Positions 18,297-18,739 of a stretch of DNA of 64,000 nt are shown here, in pieces. The DNA comes from Escherichia coli. Its GTDB lineage: Bacteria > Pseudomonadota > Gammaproteobacteria > Enterobacterales > Enterobacteriaceae. The notes under the pieces are model-generated. The model did not search any database and was not told where the DNA came from. It saw nothing but the letters and a program-made list of their open reading frames with translations. Each line of letters opens with the position of its first letter. Within the stretch, counting starts at the first letter, position 1. The stretch is taken from the NCBI RefSeq assembly GCF_003334405.1, contig NZ_QOWM01000004.1; one strand, given 5' to 3'. A program made the translations under genes and the position numbers.

Positions 18297-18739
18297 GTGA
18301 ACACAATACACCTGCGCTGTCTCTTCAGGATGAATCCCCTGGTCTGGTGCCTGCGGGCTGATGTTGCAGCAGAGCTTAGGTCACTTAGACGCTACTATCA
18401 TTTATCCAATGGCATGGAATCGAAATCAGTCGATACCCGCAGTATATATCGTGAACTGGGTGCAACGCTGAGTTACAACATGCGCCTGGGGAACGGTATG
18501 GAAATGAACCCTGGCTGAAGGCGGCTGTGCGCAAAGAATTTGTCGATGATAACCGGGTGAAGGTGAATAATGACGGTAATTTCGTCAATGATTTGTCGGG
18601 CAGACGTGGAATATACCAGGCAGCTATTAAAGCCTCATTCAGCAGTACGTTTAGCGGACATCTCGGGGTGGGGTATAGCCATGGTGCCGGTGTGGAATCC
18701 CCGTGGAACGCGGTGGCTGGTGTGAACTGGTCGTTCTGA
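18297..18739 (+). pseudogene. ycgI: Autotransporter C-terminal remnant YcgI (frameshifted)
   Basis: ORFs 18297..18518 and 18527..18739 are in different frames; the second ends with the autotransporter beta-barrel terminus ...AVAGVNWSF. Confidence 0.6.

Follow-up and report, generated by a model that had tools for sequence, protein, structure and literature searches.

The ycgI locus in this Escherichia coli chromosome segment is very probably an inert relic of an autotransporter adhesin gene that was deleted and then frameshifted. What is left, at positions 18396-18739 of the window (the whole 64,000-nucleotide stretch that was analyzed), is the final 344 bp of a YpjA/EhaD-like, AIDA-I-type autotransporter gene: codons 1023-1136 and the stop codon, minus one base. 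The remnant spans the C-terminal ~40% of the beta-barrel domain and terminates in the ...NWSF beta-signal.

The ycgI locus and its annotation

Window positions 15001-20000 correspond to W3110 1221745-1226745 at 99.96% identity, which identifies an E. coli K-12-type chromosome segment. The gene order in the W3110 RefSeq record is ymgF, ycgH (pseudogene), ymgD, ymgG, ymgI, ymgJ, a 39-aa hypothetical, an autotransporter beta-barrel pseudogene, minE, minD, and minC. The beta-barrel pseudogene, ycgI (W3110 1225141-1225484), is entered as [quoted passage not shown] and the stump in the window is base for base the W3110 allele. We take ycgI to be b4521, labeled "autotransporter homolog" in K-12 databases. 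The sole differences from W3110 within 15001-20000 are a single A/G substitution at 15511, inside the ycgH pseudogene, and an A-run indel at 18239-18243. The window holds two further autotransporter relatives. ycgH (~14430-17080), 1.3 kb upstream on the same strand, is a second autotransporter pseudogene, frameshifted with an internal stop in K-12 and intact in strain AR_0067 (WP_001522908.1). A distant paralog with 25% identity, presumably ycgV, lies at 49355-48078 on the minus strand.

Pseudogene annotation exists for E. coli K-12, and the ycgI remnant as such is already known. New relative to the RefSeq entry are the exact deletion junction, the deletion size, the frameshift, the ancestral gene, and the distribution across E. 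coli. A literature search on ycgI, b4521, and ymgJ returned passing mentions only and no dedicated study. YcgI still appears, its barrel model termed "deformed or broken," in at least one review of the outer-membrane proteins of K-12 (PMC7383365); ycgI is best handled as a pseudogene and not as a K-12 outer-membrane protein. The features of the locus are as follows.

18043-18395, plus strand: retained ancestral upstream region and 5′ leader; contains ymgJ, 39-aa hypothetical (18242-18361); paralogous to the ypjA upstream region
18297-18518, plus strand: ORF1, 73 aa, a chance chimera of leader-derived codons 1-33 and autotransporter-derived codons 34-73
18396-18397, plus strand: deletion junction; leader ...GACGCTACT joined to codon Y1023 (TAT CAT TTA...)
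18396-18739, plus strand: ycgI pseudogene remnant (tblastn, DNA alignment, TIGR01414 and PF03797 matches, RefSeq annotation)
18504-18506, plus strand: frameshift site; one T lost and the reading frame shifted by -1 (DNA alignments)
18527-18739, plus strand: ORF2, 70 aa, opening at the first start codon that is in the correct frame after the frameshift; equivalent to autotransporter residues 1067-1136
18752-18779, plus strand: hairpin resembling an intrinsic terminator, belonging to the autotransporter gene; UUCG loop on a perfect 9-bp stem, followed by UUUUCGUUU

Beta-domain homology of the stump

The sequence-only reading had described two short ORFs in different frames encoding translocator-domain sequence. 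Both ORFs are present, and the second ends in ...GVESPWNAVAGVNWSF. Their translocator-domain identity was borne out: the fragment aligned to the last 114 residues of an AIDA-type autotransporter whose intact gene lies at the identical locus in other E. coli strains. When this protein was searched against the window by tblastn, the alignment on which that reading had staked its claim was recovered, with residues 1023-1061 matching 18396-18512 (94.9% identity, E = 1e-17) and residues 1052-1136 matching 18494-18736 (88%, E = 1e-40). NCBIfam TIGR01414 (autotransporter barrel) matched ORF2 alone with E = 2.3e-9 and the frame-repaired 115-aa sequence with E = 1.4e-18, over profile positions 319-432 of 432. 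ORF1 alone gave a sub-threshold match (E = 0.057), to which residues 34-72 alone contributed. Pfam PF03797 matched the remnant over model positions 152-254 of 255 (E = 1.5e-8). The autotransporter beta-domain homology is far above chance, and these alignments indicate that the remnant is an autotransporter beta-domain by descent.

The extent of the fragment had been given as 18297-18739. The 3′ end stands, but the 5′ boundary does not, since autotransporter-derived DNA begins at 18396. Within ORF1, codons 34 to ~69 correspond to autotransporter residues 1023-1058, and the final 4 codons are out of frame. No passenger-coding DNA was found upstream of the fragment in the ORF list or the RefSeq annotation, as had been stated from the sequence.

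An intact allele at the same locus defines a 3.1-kb deletion

Comparison of the ymgG-minE interval, which had been suggested as a check, revealed a full-length autotransporter gene at the same position in other E. coli strains. In AR_0067, an uninterrupted 3411-bp gene lies between ymgJ (with the 39-aa ORF) and minE. Its 1136-aa product (WP_029701745.1) has at least eight AIDA repeats (PF16168 x8), a pertactin domain (PF03212; 641-759), a long Pro-Asn linker, and an autotransporter beta-domain (875-1114). O55:H7 strain CB9615 carries an intact 1092-aa allele (WP_001419039.1) at this position, 92% identical to that of AR_0067. An intact orthologue thus occupies the syntenic position in both strains. 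The intact allele, which PGAP names "adhesin-like autotransporter YpjA/EhaD," has its ymgJ-minE position, leader, and terminator in common with the window, and its 3′ 345 bp are ~96% identical to the window.

Alignment to the intact locus located the main lesion. Window 15001-18396 is collinear with 509-3905 of the AR_0067 locus (L003), and window 18396-20000 is collinear with 7001-8599. The bases missing at the junction number 3096 relative to AR_0067 and 2964 relative to O55:H7 CB9615. At the junction, leader ...TTAGACGCTACT abuts ATCATTTATCC... (codon Y1023 onward); T18396 is attributable to either side and is the sole shared base, a 1-bp microhomology. The deletion removed the last 29 bp before the ATG, with the AGAGGA ribosome-binding site (RBS), as well as codons 1-1022. 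Because it fused the leader to the stump, ORF1 opens with 33 codons (18297-18395) that come from the old leader and are read only by chance. The junction was base-identical in all five genomes inspected (W3110, FORC_069, 19AR1724, AVS0750, and GMM076).

An exact 22-mer junction scan of GTDB representatives, one genome per species, returned two metagenome-assembled genome (MAG) contigs only, labeled Clostridiales and Collinsella, and is uninformative on other Escherichia. The exact E. coli junction lies on a contig of the "uncultured Clostridiales" MAG UMGS1323 (L011 9200-9539, minus strand) and on one of a "Collinsella sp." MAG (L012). The Clostridiales contig, the only one of the two whose surrounding sequence was read, has E. 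coli-type ymgJ-ycgI sequence around the junction. Both contigs are probably misbinned E. coli DNA.

A single-base deletion splits the reading frame

Comparison with all in-frame alleles shows the loss of one T beside T18505: the ancestral GGAAATTGAACC, as found in FORC_069, has become GGAAATGAACC. Loss of this T creates the ORF1 stop (TGA, 18516-18518) and the two-ORF appearance of the stump. The exact 71-nt K-12 frameshift allele was found in 1690 records (~1690 of the 5426 complete E. coli genomes searched). The sequence-only reading had called the fragment simply frameshifted. A 1-bp deletion does split the frames, but the main lesion is the 3.1-kb 5′ deletion, and the frameshift is later and secondary.

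Together, the two lesions can be set against what a functional type Va (AIDA-I-type) autotransporter has. The aromatic-terminated beta-signal is kept: the remnant ends in ...AGVNWSF, aligned with the BrkA and Vag8 C termini. An N-terminal Sec signal peptide is missing, codons 1-1022 being deleted and the DNA upstream of 18396 being former noncoding leader. The passenger (beta-helix with AIDA repeats, pertactin/autochaperone) is absent from the window at the ycgI locus. The 12-stranded barrel is incomplete, with PF03797 and TIGR01414 matched over their C-terminal parts only. A single open frame with a start and RBS is likewise lacking, given the 1-bp deletion at ~18505 and a native RBS and ATG that lie within the deleted 3096 bp.

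The retained leader and ymgJ

The leader region (~350 nt) was 88.8% identical to the upstream region of ypjA over 18043-18396 and ~95% identical over 18245-18396; the ycgI/ypjA paralogous unit takes in the regulatory region. The copy of the 39-aa hypothetical (18242-18361) found upstream of ypjA has 5 nucleotide differences, all 5 of which change an amino acid. The leader thus seems to be conserved for regulation or at the nucleic acid level, not as coding sequence. An Rfam scan of 17700-19500 at a permissive threshold yielded no family; the best match, rsmX, was at chance level (E = 0.96, 18.9 bits versus a gathering score of 56).

Within ymgJ, the window has a 5-A run (TGTAAAAATGCC) at 18239-18243, compared with 6 A in W3110, MG1655, and the other best matches. 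The shorter run shifts the ymgJ frame, and the ORF extends to 18300. Segment 18190-18290 was matched at 100% in 0 of 5426 complete E. coli genomes, the best match being 99.0% with a single gap. The 5-A run could be a private mutation or a homopolymer sequencing error. ymgJ is annotated as frameshifted in the divergent strains AVS0750 and CM2 also.

The terminator-like hairpin and the minE side

Downstream of the stump, the sequence-only reading had noted a terminator hairpin at 18755-18772 followed by a T run. The hairpin and T run are there, but the coordinates needed correction: the core CTGCGC-TTCG-GCGCAG occupies 18755-18770, and the full stem, with perfect arms at 18752-18760 and 18765-18773, spans 18752-18773 and is followed by TTTTCGTTT. 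The structure begins 13 nt past the stop codon and is unique within the window by inverted-repeat search. Its RNA has a fold energy of -19.9 kcal/mol (z = -5.5), and 0 of 200 shuffled sequences folded as well. It is conserved downstream of intact alleles and invariant across the alleles examined. It thus has the GC-rich stem-loop and U tract after a stop codon that mark a rho-independent terminator. By these sequence features, the 18752-18773 hairpin is real and conserved and is the putative native terminator of the autotransporter gene. A consensus terminator scan did not list it, although folding and the inverted-repeat search confirm it; we think the scan missed it because maximal stem extension uses part of the T run.

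Two terminator-like hairpins lie on the minus strand downstream of minE. One, at 19086-19059, has a 12-bp stem directly after the minE stop. The second, at 18835-18818 (CCCGCC-GTAA-CTGGCGGG and T7), is ~220 nt beyond the first. The DNA between them is the most divergent of the region (6.1% mean, 12 indel columns) and has no annotated gene in W3110.

Distribution of the deletion allele and independent lesions in E. coli

The population set comprised 5426 complete E. coli genomes. A 1281-bp junction-spanning query was covered to at least 80% in 4471 of them, with a median of three places per genome due to the ypjA paralogy. Some ~82% of complete E. coli genomes share the identical junction, and their 3′ haplotypes clearly differ (K-12, O26/O111, and Nissle/UTI89-type); the intact gene is present in ~7.5%, O55:H7 included. 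Strains of these three kinds we take to represent phylogroups A, B1, and B2. The intact-type 5′ end, that is, the deleted portion, was found at ≥95% identity in 407 records and in ~398 by an independent leader-plus-5′-coding query. Most E. coli now carry the deletion allele.

Among deletion carriers, the 345-bp frame is open in FORC_069, GMM076, and CM2. Strains 19AR1724 and AVS0750 both lack 1 bp at remnant position 16; a further single base is missing from AVS0750 at position 276.

Typical O157:H7 carries an N-terminally truncated beta-domain pseudogene at the same locus, but its lesion is independent of that in K-12: after an IS insertion or rearrangement, 753 bp remain in frame, 250 codons that make up nearly all of the barrel, and an ompT-containing segment has taken the place of the left flank. 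In O157:H7 strain F8797 (L002 5338-7345), an IS1203 copy lies directly against the 753-bp 3′ fragment, which is in frame, with unrelated DNA (ompT region) as the left flank. O157:H7 strain PV15-279 retains the 5′ end of the gene, 395 bp at minimum, at 100% identity. With the O55:H7 CB9615 gene intact and this 5′ portion kept in PV15-279, the IS1203 event is recent.

The gene has thus been disabled by the 3.1-kb deletion and further damaged independently, by the K-12 frameshift, by the deletions at positions 16 and 276 elsewhere, and by IS1203 in O157:H7. The shared junction and the differing secondary hits indicate an order of events, one old deletion followed by scattered hits, as expected of gene decay. 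The locus is a tidy case of stepwise adhesin loss, with a common deletion, lineage-specific frameshifts, and an independent IS truncation in O157:H7.

Relic or retained function

One series of events best explains the locus. The ancestor was a type Va (AIDA-I-type, YpjA/EhaD-like) adhesin gene, ~3.3-3.4 kb long, that occupied the ymgJ-minE interval and had a leader and terminator of its own. One deletion of ~3.1 kb, by illegitimate recombination, took away everything from the last 29 bp of the leader through the first ~60% of the barrel: the RBS and start codon, the signal peptide, the passenger with its AIDA repeats and pertactin domain, and the Pro-Asn linker. The codons for the last 114 residues were thereby butted against the old leader. 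A later 1-bp deletion, in the lineage that contains K-12, left the stump in two frames. We infer that the stump yields no functional product, because it is without its own start and RBS and without a signal peptide and because the barrel, which must be whole to fold, is far too partial for folding or BAM insertion. Transcription of the stump region may still start in the retained upstream DNA and end at the hairpin, without consequence.

Mean pairwise divergence was 3.9% in the remnant, compared with 3.4% and 6.1% in the noncoding flanks and ~1%, four times lower than in the remnant, in ymgG/minE. Among stump alleles, pN/pS was ~0.1-0.26, no higher than between intact alleles, with tiny counts (5-7 nonsynonymous versus 6-10 synonymous). 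On its own, this ratio might point to ongoing constraint on the protein. We rejected pN/pS as a neutrality test, since the counts are few and confounded by recombination with functional copies. Stump pS was ~0.08-0.13, by rough estimate about twice that of neighboring minE, and the GMM076 remnant is 1 nt from the intact AR_0067 3′ end. This pS level, the GMM076 difference of 1 nt, and the 95.5%-identical ypjA suggest that the low pN/pS reflects polymorphism inherited or imported by recombination from functional copies and not present selection.

Several other explanations were weighed. That ycgI is the detached C terminus of the ycgH pseudogene, with no separate gene, might be suggested by the position of ycgH, 1.3 kb upstream on the same strand and itself disrupted in K-12. 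We discard this explanation outright: ycgH has its own beta-domain ORF (16021-17055), and ymgD, ymgG, and ymgI (on the opposite strand) separate it from ycgI. AR_0067, moreover, has an intact ycgH plus a separate intact full-length gene at the ycgI position, which refutes the ycgH reading, and by tblastn the intact ycgI-locus protein did not significantly match the ycgH part of the window. It is extremely unlikely that the stump is still used as a small protein, either ORF2 (70 aa, GVESPWNAVAGVNWSF-COOH) or, where unshifted, a 147-codon leader-stump chimera, a product that might be a decoy with a BAM-recognized beta-signal. The pN/pS of ~0.2 among remnants, the AAGG ~8 nt upstream of GTG 18527, and the frame open in FORC_069, GMM076, and CM2 would fit such a protein. 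However, without a signal peptide the beta-signal could not get to the periplasm. At least three independent frameshifts have occurred across lineages, and that at position 276 in AVS0750 falls inside ORF2. Overall divergence is at the level of the noncoding flanks, and PGAP calls neither ORF as a protein.

A role at the nucleic acid level is a highly improbable alternative to an inert relic. The leader, stump, and terminator could form a noncoding transcript, or the hairpin could shield the convergent minCDE from read-through from the ymgJ side. The leader is conserved with that of ypjA (88.8% overall, ~95% over 18245-18396), and the strong hairpin did not vary among any of the alleles examined. 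In a UTI89 expression-library (filamentation) screen, enrichment extended from minCDE through the ycgI homolog (PMC6206680); the authors of that screen noted that the enrichment of the homolog may just reflect linkage to minCDE (PMC6206680). The leader conservation, for its part, is expected of the regulatory region of a recently functional gene. The Rfam scan found no family match (best, rsmX, E = 0.96), minE has its own strong terminator-like hairpin at 19086-19059 with a second at 18835-18818 on the minus strand, and nothing links the stump itself, unlike the hairpin, to any role. The distribution of the junction, taken together with a stump pN/pS of ~0.2, would also be compatible with adhesin loss having been selected, with the deletion allele spread by recombination, or with the retained leader and stump keeping some function; we regard this pair of readings as doubtful. 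An inert relic of the deleted and frameshifted adhesin gene is the reading that we prefer.

Comparison with YpjA and complete translocator domains

The lost gene has a close K-12 paralog in YpjA (b2647), the homologue of O157:H7 EhaD, whose DNA is 95.5% identical to the stump over 18396-18749. YpjA protein is 79% identical to the intact ycgI-locus allele over residues 119-1136 of the latter. In contrast to ycgI, ypjA in K-12 is intact (1526 aa) and lies at another locus, at the edge of an island with ypjF/yfjZ. Homology in the leader and the stump together defines a shared unit that starts ~350 bp ahead of the start codon and ends 10 bp beyond the stop. Since the ypjA homology ends there, the ycgI hairpin is not common to ypjA. 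Reviews describe YpjA/EhaD as a biofilm-promoting AIDA-type adhesin and count YpjA among biofilm-forming autotransporter adhesins (PMC9289746; PMC12547504). PGAP gives the name "YpjA/EhaD" to both the true ypjA and the intact ycgI-locus gene, and studies of ypjA or ehaD presence and absence could conflate the two loci.

The C-terminal 303 aa of the AR_0067 protein aligned end to end with BrkA (3QQ2, E = 8e-24) and Vag8 (7AKV, E = 1e-24), terminal aromatic included. BrkA (PDB 3QQ2) and Vag8 (7AKV) are complete translocator domains, and the 284-residue BrkA chain aligned over query residues 21-303. While the intact same-locus allele is full length, from signal sequence to complete barrel, K-12 keeps residues 1023-1136 only, in frameshifted form. 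The K-12 stump is equivalent to approximately the C-terminal 113 residues of the BrkA chain, perhaps the last 4-5 of the 12 strands as estimated from proportions.
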